This document shows positions 6,147 to 57,570 of a DNA stretch of 64,000 nucleotides, piece after piece. The stretch spans positions 1,303-65,302 of IMG/VR virus record IMGVR_UViG_3300047533_000002. One strand, 5' to 3'. The notes under the pieces are model-generated. The model searched no databases and was not told the origin of the DNA. It saw only the letters and a list, made by a program, of their open reading frames with translations. Source of the stretch: a virus. How positions within the stretch are numbered: the first letter of the stretch is position 1; the number at the start of each line of letters is the position of its first letter. Position numbers and translations under genes: made by a program.

Positions 6147-6175
6147 CGGCCCAATACCAACGAGGAAAGCCACCC

Positions 6176-7306: not shown

Positions 7307-7316
7307 GGAGCCGGCC

Positions 7317-7418: not shown

Positions 7419-7885
7419 AACTATATCTCCGCAAAGTTCAGGGCGGCCTGGTGCCGGACGACGAGGAAACCGCCGAGGCGATCAAGAAGATCACCCTGGG
7501 CACCGTCGTGCACGGCGAGTTCACCAAGCCGGCCAACTACAAGTTCTTCAAGAAGATGCACGCCCTGGTGCGCCTGACCTTCGACCGGTTCACCGAGAAC
7601 CTGGATACGGGCATGGAATACAGGGGCATGAAGGCCGAACCGTCCTACGAACGCTTCCGCAAGGACATGACGATCCTGGCCGGCTACTACGACGCCACCT
7701 ACGACATCAACGGCAAAGTCCGCGTAGAGGCGAAGTCCTGGTCGTTCGGCAACATGGACGAGGAAGAGCGGGAGAAAATGTACTCCGCGCTGATCAACGT
7801 CGCGCTGCGCAAGTTCTTCGGCGCGCAGCTGACCGAGGCAAAGCTGCGGGAAATCGTCGAGCAAATCTTAGGTTTCGCATCATGA
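7415..7885 (+). CDS. DUF1367-like phage protein
   Basis: YKFFKKMHAL, GYYD, EAKSWSFGNMDEEEREKMYSALIN. Confidence 0.75.
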   Translation: MKLYLRKVQGGLVPDDEETAEAIKKITLGTVVHGEFTKPANYKFFKKMHALVRLTFDRFTENLDTGMEYRGMKAEPSYERFRKDMTILAGYYDATYDINGKVRVEAKSWSFGNMDEEEREKMYSALINVALRKFFGAQLTEAKLREIVEQILGFAS

Positions 7886-8238
7886 AAGGAAAGAACCCCA
7901 GCGCAAAGCAGAAGCGGTTCCACGACCTGCTGGCCCAGCACATCGGCTGCCAGGCCTGTTTCCATGACCATGGAGTGCGCAACACTCATGTGAGCATCCA
8001 TCATGTGGATGGACGCACCAAGCCCAACGCGCACTGGCAGGTGCTGGCGGTTTGCGCCGGCCATCACCAGGACGGCTACGGGGAGCCCGGAATGATCGCC
8101 ATTCACCCGTTCAAGGCTCGCTTCGAGCAGCGCTATGGCCGCCAGCTCGACCTGCTGGGCCAGGCCGTCCAAGAGCTGCGCGCACAAGGGCATGATCTGC
8201 CCGAGGAAGCGCTGGCGCTGATGTTGGAGCCAGCATGA
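7882..8238 (+). CDS. Ref-like (recombination enhancement function) HNH nuclease
   Basis: GCQAC...IHHVDGRTKPNAHWQVLAVCAGHHQ; ATG 7882 overlaps the upstream stop. Confidence 0.8.
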   Translation: MKGKNPSAKQKRFHDLLAQHIGCQACFHDHGVRNTHVSIHHVDGRTKPNAHWQVLAVCAGHHQDGYGEPGMIAIHPFKARFEQRYGRQLDLLGQAVQELRAQGHDLPEEALALMLEPA

Positions 8239-8639
8239 CCGCCCGCATGCGTGAAGACGAATACGCGGCGCTCATGGCCCGCCAGAAGCCTTCCGGGGTT
8301 AAAAAGTGGCAGGCCCTGGGCCGACTGCCGAAAGGCACGATGAACAAAACTGAGGCGGCTTACGCTGCTGAACTTGAGCGCAGGAAGCAGGCTGGCGAGG
8401 TGCTTTGGTTCAGGTTTGAGGGTGTGAAGCTGCGCCTGGCGGACAACACCTTCTACACGCCAGATTTCTTCGTAATGCTCGCCTCGGGGCAACTTGAGGC
8501 GCACGAAGTAAAGGGGCATTGGGAGGACGATGCCCGCGTGAAAACAAAGGTGGCCGCCGACCAGTACCCTTTCCAGTTTATTGGCGTGAAGGCCGTGGCC
8601 AAGAAAGACGGCGGGGGATGGTCCTATGAGTTCTTCTGA
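8235..8639 (+). CDS. DUF1064-like PD-(D/E)xK nuclease
   Basis: MNKTEAAYA, FYTPDFFV, HEVKG. Confidence 0.8.
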   Translation: MTARMREDEYAALMARQKPSGVKKWQALGRLPKGTMNKTEAAYAAELERRKQAGEVLWFRFEGVKLRLADNTFYTPDFFVMLASGQLEAHEVKGHWEDDARVKTKVAADQYPFQFIGVKAVAKKDGGGWSYEFF

Positions 8640-9135
8640 GGAATGGCGGCCTGTCCCTGGTTACGAAGGCCTCTACGAAGTAAGCAGTTCCGGGAAAATC
8701 CGGTCTTGTGCAAGGTCGATTTCATACCGGAACCGACACGGCACCACCACCACGCGCATCATCAAGCCTAAGGTCCTGACGATGCACAGCTGGGGAGCTG
8801 ATTACCCTGGGATGGTTTTCGTTGCTGCCGACGGCGGCAAGAAACGCCGGATGCTCCACCAGGTTGTTGCCGAAGTATTCATACCGAACCCTCTTGGGCT
8901 CGGCTACATCAACCACAAGGACTCGAACCAGTGGAACGCCAGGGCTGACAACCTAGAATGGTGCACCCAGGCGGAAAACATGAAGCATGCGCATGCGGTA
9001 GGGCGCCGCCCGGTTGGCGCTGATCACCACTTCGCCAAACTGCACCGGGATCGATCCGGGCGGTGCCTTGCCGACGTTCATGTGCTTGCTACAAGTGTTT
9101 CGAAAACGCAAACATACGAGAGTGATTCGCAATGA
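8626..9135 (+). CDS. NUMOD4-HNH homing endonuclease (C-terminus possibly truncated)
   Basis: EEWRPVPGYEGLYEVSSSGKIRS; LHQVVAEVF, INHKDSN..N.ADNLEW. Confidence 0.85.
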   Translation: MSSSEEWRPVPGYEGLYEVSSSGKIRSCARSISYRNRHGTTTTRIIKPKVLTMHSWGADYPGMVFVAADGGKKRRMLHQVVAEVFIPNPLGLGYINHKDSNQWNARADNLEWCTQAENMKHAHAVGRRPVGADHHFAKLHRDRSGRCLADVHVLATSVSKTQTYESDSQ

Positions 9136-9878
9136 TTGAAGCCCTGCATCCTGAATTCCGCCAGCACTACCCGGCGCTGCTGGAGATCATCACCTACGCC
9201 AAAAGCGCAGACCCCCAGCCGGAAACCCTGTCAGAAATGATCGAGCAGGACGACGAGTGGTTAGCAGCCTTTGACTGGGCAATGGGTATCCTTGTCACCA
9301 ACAGAGTGACCGGGCTGGCAGGATCGGCCTTCGCGGTGCCATTCCTGCATCCCGAGGTGTGCAGCAACCTGGTGGACGAGGCCGTGCGCCTGGGCTTCGA
9401 GCAAGGCCACCAGCCGAACCCAGAGGAAGACAGCCCGTACCAGATACCCGAGCTGGTGCTGAAGCATGTTGCGCCCGAGCTGCACGAACGCTGCTCCGAG
9501 CTGGTGGAAGCGCTGAATATCTGGTTCCTGCTGATCTACCACGTTGCGCCGAACAGTATCAGCTCGATCCAGTTCGCCAAGTACGAGCCGAATGGCACGG
9601 CGCATGGGAACTGGCACCACGATCGAGACAGTGACTTCACTGCTGTGGTCAGCCTGGCACCCGAGCTTTTCGAGGGTGGCGGCACTGACATACGCTTGAG
9701 CCCGGTCGATTATCATAGCGTGCCACCGTTGCCGGCAGGCTATGCGCTGATCATGAACGGCAAGCAAATCCAGCACCGTGGCCGCGCCGTCGAAAGTGGC
9801 GTTCGTCACCTACTGGTTTTTTGGCTTGATAGCCGTGGCGGAAGTGTTTCGATTCCGCAAACGCACAGCGTACAATAG
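9132..9878 (+). CDS. Fe(II)/2-oxoglutarate dioxygenase, lysyl/prolyl-hydroxylase-like
   Basis: HxD motif (HHDRDSDFT), FEGGGT, distal H (QHRG) and R (GVRH). Confidence 0.85.
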   Translation: MIEALHPEFRQHYPALLEIITYAKSADPQPETLSEMIEQDDEWLAAFDWAMGILVTNRVTGLAGSAFAVPFLHPEVCSNLVDEAVRLGFEQGHQPNPEEDSPYQIPELVLKHVAPELHERCSELVEALNIWFLLIYHVAPNSISSIQFAKYEPNGTAHGNWHHDRDSDFTAVVSLAPELFEGGGTDIRLSPVDYHSVPPLPAGYALIMNGKQIQHRGRAVESGVRHLLVFWLDSRGGSVSIPQTHSVQ

Positions 9879-9976
9879 CAACATGAATATGCGCCGAAGG
9901 TGATAGGCGCCCAAAAAAAACCCCGCGATCACCGGCCTGGCAGCCTACGCGGGGTTTCTCTCAAGGAGGTGCCATT

Positions 9977-10225
9977 ATGGCACACGGACAGAGCTTGCCC
10001 AACCCTTCGCAAGCAACACAAATCCTCCGCTGGCTGCAGGCCGGCAAGAAACTTACCCCTCAAGATGCGCTGCGCGAATTCGGCTGTTTCCGCCTGGCCG
10101 CTCGTGTCGCTGACCTTCGCCGCGATGGCTACAAAATCAACTCCGACCGGAAGAAGGTCATCAACTCCGACGGTACGCAGGCGGTTGTGGCTGAATACTG
10201 GATTTCCGAGGGTGACCGCCCATGA
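9977..10225 (+). CDS. Winged-HTH DNA-binding protein
   Basis: QILRWLQAGKKLTPQDALREFGCFRLAARVADLRRDGY; AAGGAGG RBS. Confidence 0.8.
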   Translation: MAHGQSLPNPSQATQILRWLQAGKKLTPQDALREFGCFRLAARVADLRRDGYKINSDRKKVINSDGTQAVVAEYWISEGDRP

Positions 10226-10458
10226 CCAGCCCAATCGTTACTCGGCGTGAATTTATGAAGGCCGCCATGGAGCTGGGAAAGGCATCGAGCCCGACCCAGC
10301 TTCAAATCCTGGCCGTCACCCAGAACCTGGCGCAACTGATCACCAACGTCACCGGACGCCCTTGCGAGCTGGCGCTGCGCTTCCCTGAGCCAGAGCCAGG
10401 CCGCGACCCGCTGCCCGGTCAGATCGACATGGGCGAAGTGTGGGAGGCTAAGGCGTGA
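10222..10458 (+). CDS. Phage hypothetical protein
   Basis: ATGA overlap coupling, phage codon usage. Confidence 0.6.
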   Translation: MTSPIVTRREFMKAAMELGKASSPTQLQILAVTQNLAQLITNVTGRPCELALRFPEPEPGRDPLPGQIDMGEVWEAKA

Positions 10459-11264
10459 GCATCCGTCGCGGCCCAAGGCCTGAAACCAAGTTCTACACGC
10501 TAGACAAGTCGATCAGCGAAGATGCGCGCCTGTCGTGGGCTGCGCGTGGCCTGCTGATCTTCCTGCTGGGCAAGCCGGACAACTGGGAAGTATCAACCAA
10601 GCACCTGATCAATCAGACCAAGGAAGCGATCGGCAAGGCATCAGGCCGTGACGCTGTTCGCGTAATCCTCAAGGAGCTGGAAGACGCTGGTTACCTGAAG
10701 GTGGACCTGGCTCGCAGCGAAGGGGGTGCATTCAACGGCATGTCCTACACGGTTAGCGAGGTTCCAGACTTCACGCGGGAGCCGGCAAATCCGGCGCCGG
10801 TGGAACCGGAAACGGAAAACCCGGCCCCGGCACAACCGGCCCCGGTAAATCCCCACCTAATAAACAATGACTTACAGCAATATCCTGAAGAAGCAGTGAG
10901 TAATGATCAAAGCAATGCGCCGAGCACATGCTCGCCGCCCGTAATTACGATGCCCTTAAACACTGGAATGGAATACCCGATCACAGTCGCCCAGGTCATG
11001 GAATGGTCCGAACTGTTCCCGGCAGTGGACGTGATGCAGCAGCTGAGAGCCATGCGTGCCTGGCTGCTGTCTAACCCGAAGAAGCGGAAAACGAAGTCCG
11101 GCATCGCCAGGTTTATCACCAGCTGGCTTTCGCGCGACCAGGACAGGGGCGGCAGCCGCTCTGCCCAGCAGCCGCGCCATGGCATGAGCCGGCAGGAGGC
11201 GCTTGAGGCGCGCAACCGCCAGGCAGCCGATGATTTCGTGTACGGAGATAATTTCCATGGTTGA
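10455..11264 (+). CDS. Phage replication initiator (O-like)
   Basis: LSWAARGLLIFLLGKPDNW, ILKELEDAGYL N-terminal HTH; C-terminal WLLSNPKKRKT..FITSWLSR. Confidence 0.8.
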   Translation: MSIRRGPRPETKFYTLDKSISEDARLSWAARGLLIFLLGKPDNWEVSTKHLINQTKEAIGKASGRDAVRVILKELEDAGYLKVDLARSEGGAFNGMSYTVSEVPDFTREPANPAPVEPETENPAPAQPAPVNPHLINNDLQQYPEEAVSNDQSNAPSTCSPPVITMPLNTGMEYPITVAQVMEWSELFPAVDVMQQLRAMRAWLLSNPKKRKTKSGIARFITSWLSRDQDRGGSRSAQQPRHGMSRQEALEARNRQAADDFVYGDNFHG

Positions 11265-11934
11265 TCCAGACGACAAGAAGCCTTTCGCTGAGATCATGCA
11301 AGCCACCATGGCGATCTACAGCAAGGACGTGACCAAGCCTGTGATGGCGCTCTACTGGGCTGCGCTGATCGAATACGACCTGCCGTCAGTTAGCCGGGCG
11401 TTCGAATTCTGGATCAAGAACCCGGACCAGGGACAGTTCGCTCCGAAGCCTGCCGACATCATCCGCATGATCGACGGCGCGACTGGCGATCGGGCGATGG
11501 TCACCTGGTCGAAGGTGGACAAGGCTGTGCGCATGGTCGGCCATTACCAGTCGGTCGCCTTCGATGACCCGATCATCCACCGTGTGATCGACGAGATGGG
11601 AGGCTGGCGCAAGCTGGCTTCCCTGCCTACGAACAAAGACCTGGAGTTCGCGGGCATCGATTTCGTGAAGCGGTATCGAGCCTATGCGCTGGCTGGCGGC
11701 GTCGGGAATGAGTACCCGGCGTATCTGATCGGCGAGAGCGAAGCCGAGAACGGCGGTCGCGGATTCCGTGACTGTGACCCAGTGCAACTGGTCGGTGACC
11801 ATCGCAAGGCCTCCGAGGTTGCGCGCCTGGGCAGCACCGGGCCGACCCTGCGCATCACGCAGGTGAAAAACGGTCGTGAACTGGTCGGGCATCAGCTGGC
11901 CAACCTTCTGCCTCGGAGCCTGACCAATGATTGA
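11257..11934 (+). CDS. Replication-associated protein (helicase-loader position, DUF6475-like)
   Basis: FAPKPADIIRMI, FDDPIIHRVIDEMGGW; follows the initiator gene. Confidence 0.7.
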   Translation: MVDPDDKKPFAEIMQATMAIYSKDVTKPVMALYWAALIEYDLPSVSRAFEFWIKNPDQGQFAPKPADIIRMIDGATGDRAMVTWSKVDKAVRMVGHYQSVAFDDPIIHRVIDEMGGWRKLASLPTNKDLEFAGIDFVKRYRAYALAGGVGNEYPAYLIGESEAENGGRGFRDCDPVQLVGDHRKASEVARLGSTGPTLRITQVKNGRELVGHQLANLLPRSLTND

Positions 11935-44391: not shown

Positions 44392-47300
44392 GTGGCCAAC
44401 GCCCCTCTGTCGCCGCTTGAGAACGTACTGTCCGAACAGCAGCAATCGCTCGGCATCTCAGACTTCAAATTCAGCGAGCCCGAGCGGGCGCCTGCCACGG
44501 CCAAGGCTGGCACTGCGCCGGCTGACCTGATGCCGCTGTTCGAGGGTGCAGCCCAGAAATACAACGTGCCGGTGAATATCCTGCTGGGCTTGGCCGACCA
44601 GGAATCCCGGTTCAATCCCCGTGCACTGGGTCAGCAGACGAAGTGGGGGCGCGCCAAGGGCTTGATGCAGTACCTGGACAGCACCGCCCAGGGGATGGGT
44701 ATCAACCCTTATGACCCGGCGCAGTCGATCGATGCAGCTGCCAAGCAGCTGTCCGAGCGCCTGGGCAAGGGCTACTCGATGATCGACGCGGTTCGCGAGC
44801 ACTTCGCCGGCCCTGATCGCAAGCAGTGGGGCAAGAAGACCGAAGCCTATGGCAACGAGGTCATGCAGCGCGCTGCGAAGTTCGAAGGCGTTCCGCTGGT
44901 GGGCGCTAACGGCCAGCCCGTGCAGTCGCCGACTGGTGACATGCCGATGGCTGCCGACATGGCGCCGGGCGCCAATGCCGATGCTGGCATGCAGCCAGGC
45001 CAGCTGGACGAGGCCGGCAAGCGCAAGCTGGCCCAGGACATGCTGACCGAGATGAACGCCGCCGAGCCAGGTCGCTACAGCCTGGCTACGCCAGAGCAGA
45101 TCGCCGCCGCGCAGTCCAAGTTGCCAGGGACTGCCGATCAGGCCCAAGGCCCTGATGGTTTCTGGTCGGCGACCGGCAAGGCCCTGTCGAACATCCCCGG
45201 CAACTTCCAGGAAGCGGCAGGCGGCCTGCTGCGCTACCTGGGCGAAGGCGTGGACGACAACACCCTGTACTTCAACGCTCAAAAGCTGGGTGTGCTGAAA
45301 AAGCTTCAGGAAGACGGTGTGATCACCATGGGTCCAAGCAAGGGAGGGCTGATCACCACCCAAGTCCCATATCTGCCTGATGGCAAGATGGCCGACATAT
45401 CGAACACGGCCCGCTACCTTCGTGAGAACGCTCCGCAGCTGTTCTCCAAGGAACAGCAGGAGGTGATGAACGGCATCAAGCCGAACGCCGTCGCCCAGAA
45501 GGGTATCGACCTGGCCGCCGATGCCCGCAAGGACCGCGCCGAGATCAACCCGGACGGCCCACTTGCCAAGTACGGCAGCATGATCATCAGCTCGACCGCC
45601 GAAATGGCGCCGGCATTGCTGGCCGGCATCGTGACCCGCAACCCGAACATGACGTTGGGCATGATCGGTACTCAGGTTTACGGCCAAAGCTACGAGAAGG
45701 GCCGCGAGAAAGGCCTGAACCCTGACGAGGCCGGCACCTACGCTGCTGCCCAGGCCGCCGCCGAGGCGATCCCGAGCGCGCTTCCGGTCCATGCGATCCT
45801 GGCGCCGGGCAAGAACTTCTTCAGCGGGCTGTTCAAGGCCGGCCTGGCCGAGTCGGTGCAAGAGGGCATTACCGGTGCACTGCAAGCCGGTATCGACAAA
45901 GGCACCATCGATCCCAATATGACCTGGGCGCAAGCGCGCGAACAGATCATCGACAGCATGATCGTAGGCGGTGGCGCTGGCGTGGCCATGCGTGCCGGTG
46001 TGGACGGCGGGCGCCGTGCACGCGAAGCCATGCGCAGCCCCGAGGCTCGCCTGGGTGAAGCCATGCAAGCCGAGGTCGATAACGCGCAGCCAAGCACCAC
46101 GGCAGACGCCGAGGCTCGTGCAGCGCTTGACCCGAACACCCAGCCCATGCAGCAGCAAGCCGAGGCCGCACCGGTTGAGGTAGCGCCAGCTAAGGACGTT
46201 CCGGCCCAAGCGCAACCAGAGCAGCCTGGGCCATCGGGTCCGCTTGGCCGTGCCCTGGAACGCGCACTACCGACCGATCCCGTGGTGGAAGCCCCGCAAG
46301 TGGTGGAGCAGGCTGCCGTGGAGCAGCAGGCACCGGTCGAGCGGGTGGAAGAATCTGCCGCGCCAGCAGCCAGCGAGTTCATGGGGCCGACCGGCTCCAC
46401 CATCAACGTTGCGCCAGCAGGCGTCGAGCCGTTCCAGGCGACGATCGAAGGCTACACGGACGGCGAGGTTGTGCTGCGCGACCAGGAGGGCAACCGTTTC
46501 CAGGTCAGCCAGGCCGAGCTTCAGCCAGCCGAGCAGATACCCAAGGCCGCCGAAGAAGCCGCGCCTGCCGTTGAAGAAACCCAGCAGGCACAGCCTGATC
46601 AGGTAGCCGAAGCGGCGCCAGCCGAGCAGGAACGCGCGCAAGCCGACCAGCAGCAGCCTGCCCGTCGTGAGCCGAAAACCTACGACCAGATGGACGAGCC
46701 TGAGCTGCGCGAGCGGCTGAAGTACCTTGCCAGGCAGGCGAAAAGCACCGGCTGGGATAAGAAGCTGGTTACCGAGCGCAAGAAGGTAGAGGCAGCGATC
46801 GACGCTATCGCCGCCAAGTCCACCCCAGAAGTGGCAGAGCCGGTTGCCGAGCAGCCTGCGCAGCAGGTTGAGCAAAAGACCGATAAGCCAGCAGCAGAGC
46901 CGGTGACCGCTGAGCTGCCCCAGGCAGAGGCGCCGAAGTGGTTCGGCACCCAGGAAAAGGCTGACGCCTACGTTGCCAAGAAAAACCTGGCAGACACCCA
47001 TGAGGTGAAGCTGAACGGTCGTCGCTTCGAGGTCGTGCCAAAGGCTGAGGTTTCGCAACCTGATACAGCTGTCGCTGAGCCTGCGCCAGTGCAGGACGCC
47101 CCACAGATCAAGCCTGACCCCAATGTTACCGGGCACGTCAATCGCGCTCGCAAGCTGATGGGTGCCAATGTCGGTGATTTCGTTCGTCCATCCTCCGATA
47201 TCGGCTACTCGACCGGTGGGCGCGAGTATTTCATCAACAAGATCGACAAGAACGGCACGGTTCACGTCACCAATCAGGAAGACGGATCGAGCACCAGCTG

Positions 47301-50300
47301 GTCGCGCGCCGAGCTGGAGCGTGCATCGCGTGCAGGCGTCTCGTTCGGTCGTGAAGTGAAGTCAGAGACAAAGGCTTCTGCTGCCCCGAGCGTTGCTGAA
47401 ACGCAAACACAATCAACTGAAGCGAAACGACCGGCAGAGAGCAGCGGCGCCGAGATTGGCAGCCTCTTCCATGGCACTGCGCGAGCCTTCGATAAATTCG
47501 ACGCCGCAAGGGTTGGCAGGTCGGGCGGCGGCTTCAATCATCAGGGGCCAGGCTTCTACCTGACTGATGACGGCGACGGCTATGCCAAGTTCTTCGCCGA
47601 AAAGGCGGCGGCCAAGGTGTCGCAGATGGACAAGTTGTTGACCGAAGCGCAGGCCGACGAGCTGTTCCATAGCGGCGGAAAAGTGCTGAACGTGTCCATT
47701 GCCGAAGATGCAAAAATGCTGGACCTTCGTAAGCCCGGCGCCGATCCAGAAGTGGTGGATATGTTTTCCCGATCCGTCGGCGATAAGTCGGTCGGTGAGC
47801 AGCTGCGCAAGCGCGTTATGGACTTAGGCTATGACGGTATTGTCTTCAAAGAGCCTAATGCGATCGAGGGCTGGGCTACAAAAGACGGCGCCATTACCGC
47901 CGTGCTTTACGATGAAAGCAAGGCTGTTATCGAGAAGCCGGCCAATACGCCCGCTGCGCCATCCATCGAAGGCGATCGCATCGACAGCGAGTGGTCCCGC
48001 TTCAAATCCGAATCCGGAACCCTTGGCATTCCGCGCGAACAGATGCCGCAGATTAAGGCCGAGCACCGTGGAGCCATGGTCAACTTCCTGAACGCGCGCG
48101 ACATTGCGCATGAGGAACAGACCGTTCCAGCTGACAGCCTCAAACCGACACAGGCAGAGTTTTCTCGCGAGAAGGTGGCGCGGGCCCAGGCCTTCGAAGG
48201 CGGTGACCGCTCCATCCTAGTATCGAGCGATGGTCACGTGCTGGACGGCCATCACCAGTGGATGGCAAAGCGCGAGGCCGGCGAGCCAGTGAAGGTGATC
48301 CGTCTGGATGCGCCGATCCGTGAGCTGCTGTCAACCGTGGCCGAGTTCCCGAGCGCGACCGTTGATCAAGGCGCGGCAACCGCAAATAACCCACAGGGAA
48401 AACCTGCTAACCGGTCGGATAGCGGTATTTCCAAGCCGTCGGCGAACAAGATTTTCACCGAGGACGCCGCCGATAAGGCCCGCGCCCTGCTGCGCTCGAA
48501 GTTGACCCAACTGAATAGCGGCATTGACCCGGAAATCATGCAGGCGGGTATTACCCTGGCCGGCTACCATATCGAGAAGGGCGCCCGCACCTTCGCCGCC
48601 TATGCCAAGGCTATGACCGCCGACCTGGGCGATATCGTGCGTCCCTACCTGAAATCGTGGTATATGGGCGTGAAGTACGACCCACGCGCCACCGGCTTCG
48701 ACGGTATGAGTACCGCTGCCGACGTTGAAGCTTTCGACCTGGCCAAACCTATCGAGGAAACCCGCAATGAACCTACAGAACTGGATCAGCCAAGCCAGGG
48801 AGCACTGGAAAGAGCACCAGCCGAAGAGGTTCCAGGAGCTGAAGGCGAAGGGTCAGCTGGGGAACGCGCTTCGCGAAGCAGCGGAGCGGACGCACGCCGA
48901 AATGAGCGAGCTGGAAGCCAGCGGGATGACGACGCACGAAGCGTGGGAGATGGCGCGGGAGCAGTACCTGTTCCCGCCAGCGGAGAGCGACCAGGACGAC
49001 GAGCAGCCGGCGAGCGGCAGCCTGTTCAACGAGGCGATGGCGGTGATCCAGCCCGAGGACGAGCAGGCGGACCAGACGGAACCGACCCAAGCAGCGTAAC
49101 CGCGTCGAACGGCGTCGAGTCTGGCGACCGTGGCACCAACTACACCATCACCGAAGCCGATGCGATCGGCACGGGCGGCGCGAAGACCAAGTACAAGGCC
49201 AACGTCGAGGCAATCCAGCTGTTGAAAAAGCTGGAGGCTTCCGGGCGCCCGGCTACCGCCGCAGAGCAGGCCGCGCTCGCCAAGTACGTGGGCTGGGGTG
49301 GCATCCCGCAGGCATTCGAGCGCAGCGACAAGAGCGCCAGCAAGGGCTGGGAGCGGGAAGTTAAGGAGCTGCGCGAGCTGCTGACGCCCGAGGAATACAG
49401 CGCCGCTGCGTCGTCCACTAAGAATGCCCACTACACCAGCCCGGAAATCGTCGCCGCCGTGTGGCGCGCCGCTGATCGCCTGGGCTTCAAGGGTGGCCGT
49501 GTGCTGGAGCCTTCTGTGGGCGCCGGCAACTTCTTCGGCCTGATGCCGCACGAGCTGCGCAAGGCATCCGCGCTGCACGGCGTGGAGCTGGATCGCATCA
49601 CCAGCGGTATCGCTGCCCAGCTTTACCCTGAAGCCAAGATCGCCCGCATGGGCTTTCAGGACTACACCATTCCAGATGGTCACTTTGACATCGCCATTGG
49701 CAACCCGCCGTTCGGGCGCGAGAGCCTGTACGACGGCAAGCGCAAGGACATCAGCGGTTTCAGCATTCACAACTACTTCTTCGCCAAGAGCCTGGACGGC
49801 CTGAAGGAAGGCGGCGTCCTGGCCATGGTCGTGACCAGCCGCATGATGGACGTGCCAGGCGATAAGGCGCGCGCCTACATGGACTATCGCGCTGACTTCA
49901 TCGGGGCGATCCGGCTGCCGAATGACGCCTTCATGGCGAAAGCCGGCACCGCCGTAACCACTGACATCATCTTCATGCGCAAGCGCGGCCCAGGCTCGCC
50001 GAATGCCGGTGAGAACTGGATGAAGGTGCGCGATTACACCGACAGCGACGGCAATACCGTGCCGCTGAACGAGTATTTCCACGATCACCCCGAGAACATG
50101 CTGGGTGACTTCGGCGCCTACGGGTCCATGTACCGCGACGGTGAGCCGGCACTTGTTGCCCGAGCCGGCCAGGACACGGCGAAACTGCTGGATCAAGCCA
50201 TTGCGCGGCTGCCGCTTGCCGAGGGCACTGTGGAGCCCGTCGTTAAGCCTGAAACCGCCGCGACCGTGCGCGCTGATAACGTGCGTGTCGGCTCCATGTT

Positions 50301-53300
50301 CGTTGACGGCGACACCGTGAAGGTTCGCGGGGATGACGTGCTAGGCGAAAACACTGCCGAGGCCGTCACCTTCCCGAGCGACAAGGCCCGCGATCGAGTG
50401 GTTGGCATGATCGGCATGCGTGACCAGCTGGCAACCCTGCGCGGCCTGCAGCTGAACCCGAACGCCACCGAGAAGCAGATCGCCACCGCTCGCAAGGCGC
50501 TGAACAACGCCTATGACGCCTTCGTCAAGGAGAACGGCCCGATTAACCTGGACGCCAACAAGCGCTTGTTCAGGGATGATCCATCCTGGCCGCAGCTGTC
50601 CGCCCTGGAAGATGGTTTCGACAAGGGTATCTCTGCTGCCGTGGCCAAGAAGACCGGCGAAGAGGCACGCAAGCCAAGCGCCCAGAAAGCCGCGATCTTC
50701 ACCAAGCGCACCCAGTCGCCATACCAGGCACCCGAAAGCGCCAGCTCAGCCAAGGACGCCTTGGTATCGTCGCTGGCCGAGACTGGCCGCGTTGACCTGG
50801 GGCTTATGGGCCGCCTGTACGGGAAGAGCGAAGACGCCATCGTCAAGGAGCTGGGCGACCTAGTGTTCCAAGACCCTGCCAAGGGCTACGTTACCCGTGA
50901 CGAGTACCTGTCTGGCAACGTGAAGGCTAAGCTGGCCCAGGCACGCCAGGCTGCACAGAAGGATGCCGCGTTCGCCCGCAACGTCGAGGCGCTGGAGGCA
51001 GTCCAGCCGCGCGACATCGAGGCCGTGGATATCAACGTGAAGCCGGGCGCCGCCTGGATACCGAACGATACCATGGGCGGCTTCGCCAACCACATCGGAG
51101 AAGGCGGCAAGGCCCGTGCTATCTACAACCCGGCCACCGCCAAGTGGTCGATCCTGGGCCTGGATTCCAGTCGTTCGGCAGATGCGCGCTGGTCTACCGG
51201 TCGCGTCGATCTTAAATCCATCCTGGAGGCTGCCGCCAACCAGAAGACGCTGCAGGTCTTCGATAGCCATTCCGACGGCACCCGCACGCTCAACGAGACC
51301 GAAACCCAGCTTGCCAATGACAAGGTAAACGCGGTCAAGGAGGAATGGAGCCGCTGGGTCTGGGCCGATGACGCCCGCCGTGAGCAGCTTGCCGGCATCT
51401 ACAACAACGTGTTCAACACCAACGTCGCCCGCGAGTACGATGGCTCGCACCTGACGTTCCCTGGCAAGGTCGGGAACGACATCATTGCCCTGCGCCCGCA
51501 CCAAGCCAATGGCGTGTGGCGCATTGTCCAGTCTGACACCACCCTGGCTGACCACGTTGTTGGCGCGGGCAAAACCTTCACGCTCATTGCCGGCGCCATG
51601 GAACTGCGCCGCATGGGTCTGGCCAAGAAGCCGATGTTCGCCGTGCCGAACCACCTGGTCGGCCAATGGGCCGCCGACTTCACCAAGCTTTACCCAGGCG
51701 CCAACGTGCTGGCCGCGACCAAGAAGGACTTCGACAAAGAAAACCGCAAGCGCCTGTTCGCCAGGATTGCGACCGGCGATTGGGATGCGGTGATCGTCGC
51801 GCATTCCAGCTTCGGCAAGGTTGAGGTCGAGCCCAAAGAGCAGGCCGCGTTTATTGAAGAGCAGATCGCCGACCTGGACAGCTCGATCGAACTGATGCGT
51901 CAGACCGATGGCGAGAAGAGCCGGAACGTCAAGGACGTGCAGAAGCGGCGGGATGCGCTGCGCGAGAAGCTGAAAAAGCTGCTGGACGCCGACAACAAGG
52001 ACGACAACCTGTACTGGGGCGAGCTGGGAATCGACGCCCTGTTCGTGGACGAGGCGCACGAGTTCAAGAACCTGGCGTTCTCCACGTCGATGAACCGCGT
52101 GGCCGGCCTGGGCAACCAGCAGGGCAGCCAGAAGGCGTCCGATATGTTCCTCAAGGTGCGCCAGGTGCTGAACGCCACGGGTGGGCGCAACGTCGTTTTC
52201 GCCACCGGTACGCCGATCAGCAACACCATGGCCGAAATGTACACCATGCAGCGCTACCTGGATTACTCGAACCTGAAGGCGCAGGGCATCAATCACTTTG
52301 ATGCCTGGGCGCGCATGTTCGGCGAGGTCGTGACCGATTGGGAACTGTCGCCATCCGGCAAGTACAAGATGAACAGCAGGTTCGCCAAGTTCGTGAACAT
52401 GCCCGAGCTGATGCAGCGGTACACGCACTTCGCTGACGTGATCAATCGCGACGACATCAACCGCATGCTGGCGTCCCAGGGTAAGAAGCTGCCCGTTCCG
52501 AAGCTAGCCGGGGGCAAGCCGACCAACGTTGTAGTGCCGCGCAGCCCTGAGCAGGCCAAGTTCATCGGGGAGCCGATCAAGGACGAGGCTGGCAACGACA
52601 CCGACAACTACCCGCAGGGCTCGCTTGTCTGGCGCTCGGAGAACATGCCGAAGAAGGCCGAGAAGGGCGCGGACAACATGCTCAAGATCATGGGCGATGC
52701 GCGTAAGGCCGCGCTCGACATGCGCTTGATCGATCCGAGCTACCCGGATTACCCGAACAGCAAGGTCAACCACGCGGCTGGTCGCATCAAAGCCATCTAC
52801 GACGAATGGCATGCCGATCGTGGCACCCAGCTGGTGTTCATCGACCTGTCCACGCCGAAGAACGCGAAAGCCGCCGAGGCTGCACGCCTGCGCGACCTGG
52901 TTGAGCGTGCCGAGCAGGGTGATGAACAGGCCATCACTGACCTGGATAAGGTGAGCCCGGACGAGATGATGGCCCTGGACGGCGATTTCTCTGTCTATGA
53001 CGACCTGAAGCAGAAGCTGATCGATCGCGGCATTCCTGAAGCGGAGATCGCCTTTATCCACGATGCCAAGACCGAGCTGCAAAAGGACGAGCTGTTCGGC
53101 AAGGTCCGGTCGGGCCGCGTTCGCGTGCTGTTCGGCTCAACCGCCAAGATGGGCGCCGGCATGAACGTACAGGACCGCCTGGTCGCACTTCATCACCTGG
53201 ACGCCCCGTGGCGGCCGTCCGACCTGGAGCAGCGAGAAGGCCGCATCATCCGCCAGGGCAACAAGCTGTACGAGCGCGACCCGGAAGGGTTCGAGGTGCG

Positions 53301-56300
53301 CATCAACCGCTATGCCACCAAGCAGACCCTGGACAGCCGTATGTGGCAGACGATCGAGGGCAAAGCCAACTTCATCGAGCAGGTGCGCAAGGGCAACACC
53401 GGCACCCGCGAGATCGAGGACGTGGCCGGCGAAGCCGCCAACGCCGCCGAAATGAAAGCGGCATCGAGCGGCAACCCCCTGATCCTGGAAGAAATGAGTC
53501 TGCGCCAGAAGGTCCGCAAGCTAGAGACCGAGCGCCAGGGCTTCGACCGGGAGCAGCACCGCCTGCGCGATAGCATTCGTTACGCCAAGCAAAGCGCCGA
53601 TCGTGCCGACGTGCTGCTGAACGAGCTGCGCCAGGACGCCAAGCGTGCGCAGCCCTCCGAGTTCGAGATGACCATCGACGGTCAGGCCTTCGACAAGCGC
53701 AAGGACGCTGGCGAGGCACTGATGGCCAAGCTGGCAGAGATGGAGGCCAGCCAGGCCGAGACTGCCACCCTGGGCAAGTTTGGCGACTTCACGCTGCACG
53801 CTGAACGGGTTGGTGCCGAACGCTTTATCGCCACCCTGGAAGGCGCTGGCACGTATGACGCGAAGATCGAGATCGGCAACGACCCGATGGGCGCCATCAT
53901 GCGCATCACCAACAGCGTGAAAGACCTGGGAGCAGCGATCGAGCAGGTAGAGCGCAACAAGGCGCGTGCCGAGGCAGACATTCCCAAGCTGGAAGCGCAG
54001 GTAAGCAAATGGCCGAAAAGCCAGGAGCTGAATGGAGCACGGTCGCGCCACGCCGAAGTGCTGGAGCAGCTGAAGCCGAAGAAGACCGTGCAGACCGCGC
54101 CAGCGGAAGCAGCCGGTAACAAGGCGAGCATGGGCGATTCCGCATCCCTGGGCGAAACCCTGCGCGCCAGCGACCTAGGCCGCATCCTTGGAACCATGAT
54201 CGACGGCGGCCAGGTCGTGCTGCACGATACTGCGCCAGACGGCATCCATCCTCAAACCCAGGGGTGGACCGACACCAATGGTAAAATCCATCTGGTGGCA
54301 GATCAGCTGACCCCTGAAAGCGCGCCGGCAGTGCTCTTGCACGAGGCGTTCCACTCAGGCGGCGAGGCCCTGGTCAAGACCGATAAGTGGATGAACCTGA
54401 TGGCTCGCCTGAATGGTTTCTACAAGGCCGCCGAGGCCGGGCGCTTGTCGGGCGACTGGGCCGAGGCCTTCCGCCGCGTGGAGAAGGCCAAAGCGGCAGG
54501 CGATACCATGTCCCGCATGCGCTCCATTGAAGAGCTGGGCGCCTATGCGATCGAGAACTACGAGCGCGCGCCGGCAGGTATCAAGAAGTGGGCGCAGAGC
54601 ATCATGGGTGCCGTGAAGGACTTCCTGTACCGCCGCTTCGGCATCCAAGCCGGCTCGGTCACCCCAGCCCAGCTGCGCGCCATGGCTGTATCGGCCCTGC
54701 GCAGTGGCAGGACCGCGCCGCGCGAGGAAGCAGCGTTCAGCCGAAACCAGGATGATGCGCCTACCGATCGCGAGGTGGACAGCTGGTTTAGCCGAGCCCT
54801 GACCGACGCCATGGCCGGCGCCAAGAGCAAAGGCCAGTTCAGCCTCCTGGCCACCGCGCCCATGGACCGCATGATCGAAGAGCTGGCCGGCAATAACATG
54901 CACGCCACCGAGTACCTGAAGCTCAAGCGTGACATGGACGCCTACCGGGCCAAGAAGCACGCCGAGTTCGATACCACGGCACAGAAGTGGCTGAAGCTGA
55001 ACGTCACTGACCGGCAGGGAGCGAAGGAGATGGCGCGCATCATGCACGATGCAACCATCGCCCAGGCCGACCCGGCTGAGTCGTTCTCGTCGATCATCAA
55101 CAAGATCGATCAGCAGATGATGGACAAGCAGCCGAACAGCGAGGCCGGCAAGGCCGCGTTCGAGAAGAAGGTGCGCGACGATGCGCGCCGGTCGGCGCAT
55201 GCTGAGTTGTCCAAGCGCTTCAAGGCGCTGTCGCCCGAGCTGCAGGCTCACTATCGCGAGGTGCGTGACACGTACAAGCGGATGACCGAAGAGCTGGACC
55301 AGATCCTGATGGACAACCTGGCAGCAGCAATCGACATCCACGGTCGGAAAGCGGAGCGCACCTACGAGAAAGAGCTGGCAGAAATCAAGGACGAGGGCCT
55401 GACCGGTGACGCCAAGAAACAGGCCGAAGCCGCTGCGCTGTACAAGTACAACACCGCCATGACCAAGCTGCGCTGGAACAAGAAGGCTCGCTTGACCATG
55501 ATGCGTCAGCAGTTCGAGGCCAACCGCCTGGAAGGCCCTTACTTCCCGCTGGCTCGCTTCGGTGACTACTTCGTGACCGTTCGCGACCGCGACACTGGCG
55601 AGGTGATCAGCTTCAGCCGGTTCGAATCCCGCAAGGAGCAGCAGCGGTTCGCGGCTGACGCTAAGCGCCTGGGCAAGGTGCAGACCGGCCTGCTGAGCGC
55701 AGACGCCGAGCTGCGTGGCTCCGTTGATCCGCGCTTTGTGTCCGATGTTGAGGACATCCTGGGCGGCGCCGACGTGCCTGATTCCGTCAAGGACCAGGTA
55801 TGGCAGCGTTACCTGGAGAGCATGCCCGACATGAGCATGCGCAAGGGCTTCATCCACCGGAAGAACCGTGAAGGCTATACCCAGGATGCCTTGCGCGCGT
55901 TCGCTTCCAGGATGTTCCATGGCGCTCACCAGCTGGGCCGCCTCAAGTTCGGCGCCCGCATGCAGGAGTCGATCGACCTGGCCAAGGAGTTTGCCGGCAA
56001 GAGCAAGGAGCCGGAGCGTGACACGGCTGTGGTCAATGAGATCAACCGTCGCCATGACTACGTGATGAACCCCAAAGGCGGCCCGCTGGCGCAGAAACTG
56101 ACCAGCGCTGCCTTCATCTATCACCTGTCGATGTCGCCAGCCGCCGCCCTGGTCAACCTGTCGCAGACCGCAATCATCGGCATTCCGGTCATTGGCGCCA
56201 AGTTCGGTACGGCCAAGACCATTGCCGAGATGGGCAAGGCTGCGACCCACTTTGTCACCGGCAAGGGACACGCGGAGAATTCGAAGTCCCTGACCGACGA

Positions 56301-57570
56301 CGAGCGCCGGGCCATGCGCCAGGCCTACGAGGCCGGCATCATCGATAGCAGCCAGGCGCACAACCTGGCAGGTGTTGGCGAAACGGGAGTCGAATACAGC
56401 GCGGTGCGCAATAAGGTGATGGGCGTCATTGCCTGGCAGTTCCATCAGGCCGAGCGGCTTAACCGGGAGGTGACGTTCCTGGCTGCTTACCGTCTGGCTC
56501 GTGCTGACGGCATGACCCACGCCCAGGCAGTCGATGAAGGGGCGCGCCTAACCTACAAGACCCACTTCGACTACTCGAACACCAACCGCCCGAGAGTCAT
56601 GCACGGCGACGTGGCCAAGGTGGCGCTGGTCTTCCGCAACTATCAGGTCAACATGCTTTGGCGCCTGTTCCGCGACACTCACCAGGTGCTCCACGGCGAC
56701 AGCGCGGCCCGGAAGGAAGCCGTTCACCAGCTCGCCGGCATCAGCGGCATGATGGCAATGAGCGCGGGCGTTAAAGGCGTGTGGCTGTATGGCTTGGCCA
56801 TGGCCATCGCCAGCATGATCTTCGGTGACGATGCGGAAGAGCAGTTCAAGAAGGGCACGGTTGACCTGCTGGGGCCCACCACCGCTGGGCTGCTGCTGAA
56901 TGGCATCCCAGGCCACCTGACCGGTACGTCGCTGTCGGGCCGCATCGGTATGCCAGACCTCTGGTTCCGTTCGCCAGATCGTCAGCTCGAAGGCAAAGAC
57001 GAGTTCAACTACTGGCAAAGCCAGTTGCTGGGTGCCTTGCCTGGCATTGCGCAGAACGTGTGGACGGGCTGGGGCCAGATCGGCGACGGCAAGGTCTATC
57101 GCGGCGTCGAAACCATGTCGCCCAAGTTCGTGAAGGACATCATGCGCACGGCGCGGTTTGCCGAAGAGGGCGCCACTACCCTGCGCGGCGATCCGCTGGT
57201 CAGCGAGTTCAAGGGCACAGAGCTGGCGGCGCAGATGCTGGGCTTCACGCCGGCAGTCCTGGCCGAGCAGTACGAGCGCAATAGCGCCCTGAAGAATGCC
57301 GAGAAGCGGATCATGGATAAGCGCCGTGGGCTGATGGACAAGTACGCCACTGCCCACAAGCTGAAGGACGAAGAGGGTAAGGCTGATGCCATGGCCGATA
57401 TCAAGGCGTTCAACCGCGAGCATAAGCAGGTGGCGATCACGCCGAACACGATCCGCCAGTCGTTGCAATCGCGTCGGCGCTACAGCGATCGGACAGAAGG
57501 CGGCGTGAACATCAATCCGAAGCTGAACCGCGAACTTCGTGATAATCTAGGCCAAGCGATCTACCGTTGA
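44392..57570 (+). CDS. 4,392-aa DarB-like polyvalent virion protein: SLT, ART-like, ParB-like, N6-adenine MTase, SNF2 helicase, metallopeptidase, LPD38-like C-terminus
   Basis: QESRFNP/GLMQ (SLT); FHGT..GPGFYLT..GYDGIVF (ART-like); LKPTQ..LDGHHQW (ParB-like); VLEPSVGAGNF and IGNPPF (MTase); VGAGKT and FVDEAHEFKN (helicase); LLHEAFH. Confidence 0.92.
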   Translation: MANAPLSPLENVLSEQQQSLGISDFKFSEPERAPATAKAGTAPADLMPLFEGAAQKYNVPVNILLGLADQESRFNPRALGQQTKWGRAKGLMQYLDSTAQGMGINPYDPAQSIDAAAKQLSERLGKGYSMIDAVREHFAGPDRKQWGKKTEAYGNEVMQRAAKFEGVPLVGANGQPVQSPTGDMPMAADMAPGANADAGMQPGQLDEAGKRKLAQDMLTEMNAAEPGRYSLATPEQIAAAQSKLPGTADQAQGPDGFWSATGKALSNIPGNFQEAAGGLLRYLGEGVDDNTLYFNAQKLGVLKKLQEDGVITMGPSKGGLITTQVPYLPDGKMADISNTARYLRENAPQLFSKEQQEVMNGIKPNAVAQKGIDLAADARKDRAEINPDGPLAKYGSMIISSTAEMAPALLAGIVTRNPNMTLGMIGTQVYGQSYEKGREKGLNPDEAGTYAAAQAAAEAIPSALPVHAILAPGKNFFSGLFKAGLAESVQEGITGALQAGIDKGTIDPNMTWAQAREQIIDSMIVGGGAGVAMRAGVDGGRRAREAMRSPEARLGEAMQAEVDNAQPSTTADAEARAALDPNTQPMQQQAEAAPVEVAPAKDVPAQAQPEQPGPSGPLGRALERALPTDPVVEAPQVVEQAAVEQQAPVERVEESAAPAASEFMGPTGSTINVAPAGVEPFQATIEGYTDGEVVLRDQEGNRFQVSQAELQPAEQIPKAAEEAAPAVEETQQAQPDQVAEAAPAEQERAQADQQQPARREPKTYDQMDEPELRERLKYLARQAKSTGWDKKLVTERKKVEAAIDAIAAKSTPEVAEPVAEQPAQQVEQKTDKPAAEPVTAELPQAEAPKWFGTQEKADAYVAKKNLADTHEVKLNGRRFEVVPKAEVSQPDTAVAEPAPVQDAPQIKPDPNVTGHVNRARKLMGANVGDFVRPSSDIGYSTGGREYFINKIDKNGTVHVTNQEDGSSTSWSRAELERASRAGVSFGREVKSETKASAAPSVAETQTQSTEAKRPAESSGAEIGSLFHGTARAFDKFDAARVGRSGGGFNHQGPGFYLTDDGDGYAKFFAEKAAAKVSQMDKLLTEAQADELFHSGGKVLNVSIAEDAKMLDLRKPGADPEVVDMFSRSVGDKSVGEQLRKRVMDLGYDGIVFKEPNAIEGWATKDGAITAVLYDESKAVIEKPANTPAAPSIEGDRIDSEWSRFKSESGTLGIPREQMPQIKAEHRGAMVNFLNARDIAHEEQTVPADSLKPTQAEFSREKVARAQAFEGGDRSILVSSDGHVLDGHHQWMAKREAGEPVKVIRLDAPIRELLSTVAEFPSATVDQGAATANNPQGKPANRSDSGISKPSANKIFTEDAADKARALLRSKLTQLNSGIDPEIMQAGITLAGYHIEKGARTFAAYAKAMTADLGDIVRPYLKSWYMGVKYDPRATGFDGMSTAADVEAFDLAKPIEETRNEPTELDQPSQGALERAPAEEVPGAEGEGSAGERASRSSGADARRNERAGSQRDDDARSVGDGAGAVPVPASGERPGRRAAGERQPVQRGDGGDPARGRAGGPDGTDPSSVTASNGVESGDRGTNYTITEADAIGTGGAKTKYKANVEAIQLLKKLEASGRPATAAEQAALAKYVGWGGIPQAFERSDKSASKGWEREVKELRELLTPEEYSAAASSTKNAHYTSPEIVAAVWRAADRLGFKGGRVLEPSVGAGNFFGLMPHELRKASALHGVELDRITSGIAAQLYPEAKIARMGFQDYTIPDGHFDIAIGNPPFGRESLYDGKRKDISGFSIHNYFFAKSLDGLKEGGVLAMVVTSRMMDVPGDKARAYMDYRADFIGAIRLPNDAFMAKAGTAVTTDIIFMRKRGPGSPNAGENWMKVRDYTDSDGNTVPLNEYFHDHPENMLGDFGAYGSMYRDGEPALVARAGQDTAKLLDQAIARLPLAEGTVEPVVKPETAATVRADNVRVGSMFVDGDTVKVRGDDVLGENTAEAVTFPSDKARDRVVGMIGMRDQLATLRGLQLNPNATEKQIATARKALNNAYDAFVKENGPINLDANKRLFRDDPSWPQLSALEDGFDKGISAAVAKKTGEEARKPSAQKAAIFTKRTQSPYQAPESASSAKDALVSSLAETGRVDLGLMGRLYGKSEDAIVKELGDLVFQDPAKGYVTRDEYLSGNVKAKLAQARQAAQKDAAFARNVEALEAVQPRDIEAVDINVKPGAAWIPNDTMGGFANHIGEGGKARAIYNPATAKWSILGLDSSRSADARWSTGRVDLKSILEAAANQKTLQVFDSHSDGTRTLNETETQLANDKVNAVKEEWSRWVWADDARREQLAGIYNNVFNTNVAREYDGSHLTFPGKVGNDIIALRPHQANGVWRIVQSDTTLADHVVGAGKTFTLIAGAMELRRMGLAKKPMFAVPNHLVGQWAADFTKLYPGANVLAATKKDFDKENRKRLFARIATGDWDAVIVAHSSFGKVEVEPKEQAAFIEEQIADLDSSIELMRQTDGEKSRNVKDVQKRRDALREKLKKLLDADNKDDNLYWGELGIDALFVDEAHEFKNLAFSTSMNRVAGLGNQQGSQKASDMFLKVRQVLNATGGRNVVFATGTPISNTMAEMYTMQRYLDYSNLKAQGINHFDAWARMFGEVVTDWELSPSGKYKMNSRFAKFVNMPELMQRYTHFADVINRDDINRMLASQGKKLPVPKLAGGKPTNVVVPRSPEQAKFIGEPIKDEAGNDTDNYPQGSLVWRSENMPKKAEKGADNMLKIMGDARKAALDMRLIDPSYPDYPNSKVNHAAGRIKAIYDEWHADRGTQLVFIDLSTPKNAKAAEAARLRDLVERAEQGDEQAITDLDKVSPDEMMALDGDFSVYDDLKQKLIDRGIPEAEIAFIHDAKTELQKDELFGKVRSGRVRVLFGSTAKMGAGMNVQDRLVALHHLDAPWRPSDLEQREGRIIRQGNKLYERDPEGFEVRINRYATKQTLDSRMWQTIEGKANFIEQVRKGNTGTREIEDVAGEAANAAEMKAASSGNPLILEEMSLRQKVRKLETERQGFDREQHRLRDSIRYAKQSADRADVLLNELRQDAKRAQPSEFEMTIDGQAFDKRKDAGEALMAKLAEMEASQAETATLGKFGDFTLHAERVGAERFIATLEGAGTYDAKIEIGNDPMGAIMRITNSVKDLGAAIEQVERNKARAEADIPKLEAQVSKWPKSQELNGARSRHAEVLEQLKPKKTVQTAPAEAAGNKASMGDSASLGETLRASDLGRILGTMIDGGQVVLHDTAPDGIHPQTQGWTDTNGKIHLVADQLTPESAPAVLLHEAFHSGGEALVKTDKWMNLMARLNGFYKAAEAGRLSGDWAEAFRRVEKAKAAGDTMSRMRSIEELGAYAIENYERAPAGIKKWAQSIMGAVKDFLYRRFGIQAGSVTPAQLRAMAVSALRSGRTAPREEAAFSRNQDDAPTDREVDSWFSRALTDAMAGAKSKGQFSLLATAPMDRMIEELAGNNMHATEYLKLKRDMDAYRAKKHAEFDTTAQKWLKLNVTDRQGAKEMARIMHDATIAQADPAESFSSIINKIDQQMMDKQPNSEAGKAAFEKKVRDDARRSAHAELSKRFKALSPELQAHYREVRDTYKRMTEELDQILMDNLAAAIDIHGRKAERTYEKELAEIKDEGLTGDAKKQAEAAALYKYNTAMTKLRWNKKARLTMMRQQFEANRLEGPYFPLARFGDYFVTVRDRDTGEVISFSRFESRKEQQRFAADAKRLGKVQTGLLSADAELRGSVDPRFVSDVEDILGGADVPDSVKDQVWQRYLESMPDMSMRKGFIHRKNREGYTQDALRAFASRMFHGAHQLGRLKFGARMQESIDLAKEFAGKSKEPERDTAVVNEINRRHDYVMNPKGGPLAQKLTSAAFIYHLSMSPAAALVNLSQTAIIGIPVIGAKFGTAKTIAEMGKAATHFVTGKGHAENSKSLTDDERRAMRQAYEAGIIDSSQAHNLAGVGETGVEYSAVRNKVMGVIAWQFHQAERLNREVTFLAAYRLARADGMTHAQAVDEGARLTYKTHFDYSNTNRPRVMHGDVAKVALVFRNYQVNMLWRLFRDTHQVLHGDSAARKEAVHQLAGISGMMAMSAGVKGVWLYGLAMAIASMIFGDDAEEQFKKGTVDLLGPTTAGLLLNGIPGHLTGTSLSGRIGMPDLWFRSPDRQLEGKDEFNYWQSQLLGALPGIAQNVWTGWGQIGDGKVYRGVETMSPKFVKDIMRTARFAEEGATTLRGDPLVSEFKGTELAAQMLGFTPAVLAEQYERNSALKNAEKRIMDKRRGLMDKYATAHKLKDEEGKADAMADIKAFNREHKQVAITPNTIRQSLQSRRRYSDRTEGGVNINPKLNRELRDNLGQAIYR
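48767..49099 (+). CDS. Overprinted 110-aa gene in the +1 frame inside the giant polyvalent gene
   Basis: GAGGA RBS 8 nt before ATG 48767; GC3-rich preferred codons in this frame; globular-looking MNLQNWISQAREHWKEHQPKRFQELKAKG...AWEMAREQYLFPP. Confidence 0.7.
   Translation: MNLQNWISQAREHWKEHQPKRFQELKAKGQLGNALREAAERTHAEMSELEASGMTTHEAWEMAREQYLFPPAESDQDDEQPASGSLFNEAMAVIQPEDEQADQTEPTQAA

Follow-up and report, generated by a model that had tools for sequence, protein, structure and literature searches.

In hepadnaviruses, the tolerant, disordered spacer of the multidomain polymerase lies over the constrained, folded frame of the surface gene. Among bacterial viruses, Rz1 of phage lambda is situated within Rz, and this gene pair occurs as an embedded class in Bcep22-like phages (PMC9144972). 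Phage P1 encodes accessory proteins of the Dar system that are required for the system according to Piya et al. (2017), as cited in PMC9144972; Bcep22-like phages have no known homologues of the P1 accessory proteins Ulx, DdrA, DdrB and Hdf (PMC9144972). Here, an overlap is described in which a small gene lies within a giant DarB-like gene of a provirus of the PEp14/Bcep22 type (IMG/VR record IMGVR_UViG_3300047533_000002, positions 1,303 to 65,302; the 64,000 nucleotides analyzed are referred to as the window). Comparison with related phages makes it probable that positions 48767-49099 are dual-coding, with a selected small gene placed over a linker of the giant frame, and suggests that this gene uses an internal start, that the arrangement arose by fusion and that the small protein may act as a partner of the giant one.

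The host frame of the overlap is a stop-free open reading frame (ORF) at 44392-57570 on the plus strand, as are all features given below, and encodes a virion protein of 4,392 residues. It fits the DarB-like polyvalent class, in which an N6-adenine methylase, a superfamily 2 helicase and polyvalent domains are united in one large protein. Pfam searches of the giant protein returned SLT, a weak ART-PolyVal match, an Eco57I methylase, ResIII/SNF2/Helicase_C and LPD39, and its PHROG label is DarB-like antirestriction (PHROG 10089). Wholly within this 13.2-kb ORF, on the same strand but in a different frame, lies the nested gene (48767-49099), which starts with ATG and encodes a TnpV-like protein of 110 residues (P0001); its frame is +1 relative to the giant ORF, as (48767-44392) mod 3 = 1. 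Direct reading of the sequence shows a Shine-Dalgarno (SD)-like GAGGA (48754-48758) with a distance of 8 nt to the nested ATG. Over the small gene, translation of the giant frame yields a low-complexity linker rich in R, G, A, D and E (48766-49101; giant residues 1459-1570). Just 5' of this linker, a conserved module of about 85 residues is encoded (48499-48756; giant residues 1370-1455), which was recovered by tblastn from 71 phage records. The first enzyme domain past the small gene is an Eco57I-type N6-adenine methyltransferase, whose motif region (49669-49878; giant residues 1760-1829; Pfam PF07669, E = 3.1e-9) is matched about 190 residues downstream. The third-position G+C content (GC3) is 0.84 in the small frame versus 0.43 in the giant frame across the overlap (values of 0.38-0.53); outside of it, the giant gene has a GC3 of 0.78-0.83, and the overlap is the deepest and longest GC3 dip of the entire giant gene. 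An earlier note on this DNA, made from its letters, had claimed a 110-codon ORF in the +1 frame with GAGGA 8 nt upstream and ahead of the methyltransferase, G/C-ending codons in the nested frame and an R/G/A/D-rich, low-complexity giant frame; all of these features were confirmed, including, by translation, the string that had been quoted for the giant frame. Milder dips of giant-gene GC3 (0.47-0.57 versus 0.78 gene-wide) are found at positions 46552-47511 and 47812-47931 of the window.

The nested peptide is shared with many related phages. Searches with tblastn identified it at 50-76% identity in 21 phage records belonging to about 10 genera, including Pseudomonas phage Itty13, Klebsiella phages SopranoGao, LASTA and SJM3, Erwinia phages PEp14, Stean and Pavtok, Vibrio phage VvAW1, Sinorhizobium phage PBC5, Agrobacterium phage Atu_ph08, Ochrobactrum phage POI1126 and Microcystis phage Mwe-JY07. 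In nine annotated giant coding sequences (CDSs) the match lies in the +1 frame, and the only annotated giant CDSs that depart from this layout are those of the PBC5 records (GenBank 2001 and RefSeq) and the mis-annotated Itty13. The layout recurs in metagenome and genome contigs (L015, L026, L028, L029, L033, L034, L039 and L041). The absence of homologues and of a conserved frame, ribosome-binding site or start had been named as evidence that would speak against a gene; instead, the peptide, its ATG, the SD-like site and the stop position were found to be kept across these genera. The small ORF has been called as a separate protein mainly on short contigs in which the giant gene is cut. In the phage records checked, the small gene is nowhere annotated on its own, PBC5 treating it as the tail of orf33/gp22, and searches of the literature on PLxRFG, DarB-like, Bcep22-type and polyvalent proteins revealed no mention of an embedded gene. 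In Itty13 (MW460249.1; locus L001, record positions 161-11419), the giant-gene region is annotated as several opposite-strand “hypothetical protein” CDSs, which looks like a mis-annotation of a GC-rich gene. A search of PLSDB gave one match only (NZ_CP137607.1, 14829-15047), within a 59-kb Brucella pseudintermedia record whose giant (PLxRFG) gene resembles that of POI1126 and contains the embedded ORF; this “plasmid” may be a phage-plasmid or an episomal prophage.

Several comparisons point to the small frame as the one under selection. In a codon-position test on pairwise differences per site, covering a gap-free core of 69 codons from 12 phages, variability was highest at the third positions of the small frame (0.435), followed by its first (0.312) and second positions (0.268). 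Residue identity among these phages amounts to 59% for the small frame; the corresponding values are 41% for the giant frame and 44% for the third, stop-filled frame. Since the giant frame thus fares no better than a frame filled with stops, its residue conservation appears to be a by-product only. A sliding scan located a switch of codon phase at the borders of the small ORF: the giant-frame third position is the most variable one in both flanks (0.45-0.66) and the least variable one inside 48808-48957 (0.29-0.31), and the upstream module of about 85 residues (48499-48756) shows normal giant-frame third-position variability. When selection on each frame was compared across homologous giant genes, as the earlier note had proposed, the small frame was favored: ten close pairs exhibited 171 changes that are silent in the small frame only versus 44 that are silent in the giant frame only, from 112 and 163 opportunities for such changes, respectively. 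This pattern indicates purifying selection on the small frame. The giant frame, for its part, is free of stops in every embedded copy, and random synonymous recoding of the small protein keeps it open in only 0-38% of cases (1.8% for the window, about 0.6% for Lastavirus phages and less than 0.02% for VvAW1). T is rare at the third positions of the small frame (0.02-0.06 versus 0.03-0.33 elsewhere). The giant frame is held open by selection through biased codon choice. Together, these comparisons depict a conserved, selected and separately startable gene overlapping a linker that would need only to remain open.

Start signals accompany the embedded gene throughout. ATG is the first codon in all 21 embedded copies examined, and an SD-like 4-mer is found 4-14 nt upstream of 19 of these 21 starts versus 16% of the background ATGs of the same loci. 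The two starts that lack such a site belong to the copies of a Bacteroides phage and of USP_18; SD sites are little used in Bacteroides phages. Residue conservation begins exactly at Met1, and the +1 frame upstream of Met1 shows no residue conservation among the compared phages. In addition, a +1-frame stop is situated two codons 5' of the ATG in SopranoGao, LASTA, PEp14, Stean, Pavtok, Parlo and ZX1. Of the possible routes to the small protein, the best supported is independent initiation, led by the SD-like site, on the late mRNA of the giant gene. In this model, ribosomes would initiate separately at the internal ATG of the late giant-gene mRNA, as they do for lambda Rz1 within Rz, and owing to the shared mRNA the synthesis of the small protein would coincide in time and place with that of the giant one.

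The small protein is acidic, with an isoelectric point of 4.5 and a net charge of -13. AlphaFold2 predicts four helices (residues 3-17, 19-27, 31-51 and 56-67) with confidence (pLDDT) values of about 87-92. They make up a domain of residues 1-71 (48767-48979), of which residues 1-70 align without gaps across the 12 phages. The remaining residues 72-110 (48980-49096) form an acidic and variable tail that is predicted to be disordered (pLDDT 42-58) and aligns with gaps. A profile built from 23 homologues matches 810 clusters at 50% identity, mostly proteins of 75-130 residues that are aligned from residue 1 onward. The sole Pfam family that recurs in these searches is TnpV (PF14198), which comprises small proteins of Tn4451-type transposons that were formerly proposed to be Xis-like and have no established function (PMC3158075). 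The query scored 16.7 bits (E = 0.007; gathering threshold 27 bits), 37 of 132 relatives yielded TnpV matches at E <= 0.01, and the top score of 26 bits was obtained for a longer homologue (P0125) that was scanned separately. Several predicted TnpV structures in the AlphaFold Database match weakly (E = 0.25-1.2, TM scores of 0.4-0.5), and the Atlas points likewise. Among solved chains, the best was 2apl (PG0816; Z 7.7, root-mean-square deviation 2.3 A over 64 residues, VIA-align), values in the range common for small helical bundles; a Foldseek search against the PDB returned no match at E <= 0.001, and a sequence search against solved structures gave nothing useful. The protein shares with TnpV its small size of about 100-130 residues, its helical nature, its residence on mobile elements and matches to the hidden Markov model (HMM) over the same core. 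It differs in its sub-cut-off score, in the lack of an adjacent serine recombinase and in being found in phage virion genes and proteobacterial islands instead of Firmicutes transposons: no TnpX-type serine recombinase stands beside the gene, which is located within a phage virion gene, and free-standing relatives reside in tyrosine-integrase islands. Of the loose resemblance to TnpV that had been suggested in the earlier note, there remains a sub-threshold HMM match of 16.7 bits, below the Pfam cut-off of 27 bits, and the protein is best described as TnpV-like without being placed in PF14198.

Free-standing homologues carry stops in the -1 frame, i.e., in the frame that a giant gene would use. 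One of them (P0024, 49% identity; L012:4722-5036) is part of an island with integrase, AlpA-type helix-turn-helix, primase and Sf6-type small-terminase genes, where it stands beside Shedu and PanA. Another (P0090, in L030) is located two genes upstream of hsdM-hsdS-hsdR, and the copy in L036 directly follows hsdR-hsdM-hsdS. Further copies are found in an integrase/Mob_Pre island (L035) and amid conflict-type genes, either GT4-conflict and Prim-Pol (L037) or TerB and DUF4145 (L038). In an alphaproteobacterial metagenome-assembled genome (L040:7992-8663), the TnpV-like part makes up the N-terminal portion of a protein of 223 residues whose C-terminal region is hydrophobic and possibly membrane-bound. 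These contexts suggest that mobile elements harbor a true family of TnpV-like small proteins, which is able to function without a giant gene. Stand-alone homologues, for which the earlier note had proposed to search next to DarB-like genes, thus do exist, but the islands that hold them have no giant gene. The further claim that the small gene is older or under selection and that the giant protein reads through it as a linker gains support from the selection pattern, the free-standing copies and the 810 clusters. In L036, just 3' of the type I restriction-modification (R-M) operon, a 520-codon ORF without a Pfam match (7739-9301) overlaps the free-standing TnpV-like gene in its -1 frame; this ORF may be either genuine or an artefact of high G+C content.

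The arrangement extends beyond the TnpV-like family. Giant genes without a P0001 homologue were likewise found to contain a +1-frame ORF at the same linker, in each case started by ATG, and all 24 giant genes examined appear to hide a second gene. A family of about 100-107 residues is present in Burkholderia Lessieviruses, Ralstonia phage Heva and Pseudoalteromonas phage Y7 (L019:2793-3116, L017:4033-4356, L023:3498-3794 and L049-L051), with 107 residues in Bcep22, BcepIL02, DC1, JC1 and Heva and a 98-residue relative in Y7; ATG and the motif AAGGAG are kept in four Lessieviruses. A family of 129 residues starting with MYQVP or MFQVP was identified in Pseudomonas phage Skulduggery, Serratia phage Parlo and Klebsiella phage ZX1 (L018:2772-3161, L020:2898-3287 and L022:2919-3308). 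It passes the codon-position test, with site differences of 0.320, 0.256 and 0.457 at the first, second and third codon positions, its residue identity is 50-65% in the small frame versus 32-46% in the giant frame, and nearly all of its 66 database homologues have a length of exactly 129 residues. Further +1 ORFs occupy the same slot in USP_18, 8P and a Bacteroides phage. Kinship of the TnpV-like and 129-residue families was considered and none was detectable (hhalign probability 0.3%). A free-standing member of the 129-residue family exists in a Crenobacter island (L046:9001-9390), where integrase, AlpA, primase and small-terminase genes are followed by this small gene and then by Zorya. The two unrelated embedded-gene families are each represented by one example (L012 and L046) in satellite-like islands of this layout, in which defense cargo comes after the small gene.

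The embedded gene families are exchanged between phages together with what follows them. ZX1 and LASTA, which belong to one genus, have a DNA identity of 81-93% as far as the ATG of the small gene and are unrelated beyond it; from the small gene onward, ZX1 is Parlo-like and LASTA is PEp14-like. An Eco57I/N6_Mtase domain follows the TnpV-like genes, including that of LASTA, as well as the Bcep22-type, Heva, Y7, 8P and USP_18 genes, and a ResIII/Helicase_C_4 helicase follows the 129-residue family. Judged from this one close pair, the small gene appears to be co-inherited with the downstream enzyme module, and among the phages examined the small-gene family seems to track the type of this module. 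Enterobacterial phages with different embedded families have in common a junction sequence, about 25 nt long and terminating at the ATG (TTCGAC..GAGGTAAC.CCGA-ATG; L022:~2897-2921 versus L011:~5979-6003, also L002-L005 and L020), which suggests a recombination boundary for the joint swapping of small gene and enzyme module.

These observations can be accommodated in a model in which the small gene and the downstream methylase-helicase gene would once have formed a two-gene unit, to which upstream virion-protein modules were later fused by read-through of the small gene in its -1 frame. The linker connects the N-terminal modules of the DarB-like virion protein to its methylase-helicase part. 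The fusion across an intervening gene that had been suggested from the sequence is plausible in this light, and is refined in that the small gene would move with the methylase/helicase module, one junction lying exactly at the ATG. With regard to function, the small protein may act as the cognate partner of the DarB-type enzyme module encoded downstream, either as a loading or folding helper or as a reversible inhibitor; this proposal is tentative and is made with low certainty.

The least probable explanation, to which we assign hardly any weight, is that no functional protein is made from the ORF, the frame being open by chance or left over as a decaying relic in a GC3-rich gene. It was correctly cautioned in the earlier note that a GC3-rich ORF suppresses stop codons in an overlapping frame: after recoding of the giant-frame peptide of the window with phage codon usage, the +1 frame was open by chance in 87% of simulations, and across the phages simulated this value ranged from 22 to 98%. 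The open frame was therefore dropped as proof of a gene, and because openness alone is so likely, the case for the gene rests on its relatives. The mere presence of the ORF is within chance, whereas its conservation, start signals and substitution pattern are far beyond it. A chance frame would not lead one to expect a peptide, ATG, SD-like site and stop position that are also kept in phages of about 50% G+C, where chance openness is 0.22, nor the coding-type substitution pattern, the confidently predicted fold of residues 1-70 or a large family that includes free-standing genes. Only slightly more credible, and still very unlikely, is a programmed +1 ribosomal frameshift that would join the N-terminal modules to a TnpV-like tail without separate initiation. 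The +1 frame of the window is open for 19 codons 5' of the ATG, and in PBC5 as deposited (AF448724.1; L007:~5940-5990) the tail shares the reading frame of the N-terminal module, the giant gene being split into orf33/gp22 and orf23/gp21 and the methylase frame being open across the overlap. However, PBC5 differs from its closest relative Atu_ph08 by an apparent single-base indel just ahead of the small gene in a sequence from 2001, and this one-base frame difference may reflect either a sequencing error or true variation. The frameshift tail raised in the earlier note can be set aside almost entirely because in the seven relatives listed above the +1 frame is closed by a stop two codons ahead of the ATG; the lack of residue conservation upstream of Met1, the conserved ATG and SD-like site and the use of the same methionine as the start of free-standing homologues disfavor it further. 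A match to PHROG 938 (“endolysin”) as an in-frame C-terminal tail was rejected as well, as it traces to the frame difference of PBC5 gp22/orf33, in which the small ORF continues the frame of the N-terminal module.

A more serious competitor, although we regard it as unlikely, is an independent conflict gene, i.e., an anti-defense gene or regulator that is lodged in the linker, for example an acidic factor that counters restriction or a protein that modulates HsdM-type methylases. It would agree with the residence of free-standing relatives in defense-rich integrative islands, where L030 and L036 adjoin type I R-M operons and other copies adjoin Shedu/PanA (L012) or TerB, DUF4145 and GT4-conflict genes, with the acidity of the small protein and with the presence of different cassette families in closely related phages, which is typical of anti-defense genes. 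Yet only two of about seven contexts include adjacent R-M genes, which are frequent in islands in any case, expression from a late virion-gene transcript would require packaging of the small protein for an early anti-restriction role, and mere lodging leaves the strict position and the co-inheritance with the enzyme module unexplained. It is also conceivable, but improbable, that the embedded proteins are module-specific, immunity-like inhibitors or loading partners, produced in step with the enzyme from the mRNA that both share, and that bacterial islands and phage satellites have captured copies of them against incoming DarB-like proteins (anti-anti-restriction); such a role would explain the copies next to type I R-M genes, those next to satellite small terminases and the co-swapping of gene and module. 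Some observations weigh against a dual-coding segment whose small product serves the giant protein. The free-standing relatives in islands without a giant gene imply that the protein can work alone, and its functional link to the giant protein is drawn solely from position and co-inheritance. In the Bcep22-type family, the substitution bias toward the small frame is weak (76 versus 55), PBC5 as deposited departs from the nested layout, and initiation within a heavily translated ORF may be inefficient. Virion mass spectrometry of phage JC1 detected the giant protein and reports no small protein, the presence of the small ORF in the search database being unchecked (PMC9144972). The dual-coding arrangement nevertheless accounts best for the evidence from the relatives.

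About one fifth of the genome is devoted to a DarB-like or “PLxRFG” giant gene in PEp14-, Bcep22-, LASTA- and Itty13-like podophages, which form a widespread group, and the genes embedded in these giant genes are obvious candidates for the missing DarB accessory proteins of these phages. The locus would also represent a clean natural case of a fusion that kept an intervening gene and turned its alternative frame into a linker, with a module-swap junction that coincides with a start codon. In practical terms, embedded ORFs of this kind belong in the output of gene callers and in proteomics databases, and engineering of the giant gene, e.g., by linker deletions, would unwittingly knock out a second gene.

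Embedded +1 architecture as such is known from Rz/Rz1; as far as can be told, this instance, its breadth, the use of a linker as the alternative frame and the co-swapping with an enzyme module are new. Like P1 Ulx, DdrA, DdrB and Hdf, the embedded genes encode small proteins together with a DarB methylase-helicase, but P1 ulx is an ordinary separate gene downstream of darB. Homology to P1 Ulx was sought with hmmsearch, using profiles of both embedded families, and gave nothing meaningful; a functional equivalence to the P1 accessory proteins would be pure conjecture. The closest parallel in layout is Rz1 within Rz. Rz1, too, is complete, brings its own start signals and is read from the same strand in the +1 frame of the larger gene, and here, as in that pair, both products would derive from one late transcript. 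In contrast to Rz/Rz1, which are two folded and interacting lysis proteins, the host frame here is a mere linker of a 4,392-residue virion protein, and the embedded protein is acidic and cytoplasmic-looking. This division between a constrained, folded frame and a tolerant one is shared with the polymerase spacer and surface gene of hepadnaviruses, from which the present overlap differs in belonging to a bacterial virus, in its probable SD-led internal initiation and in the interchangeability of its embedded families.

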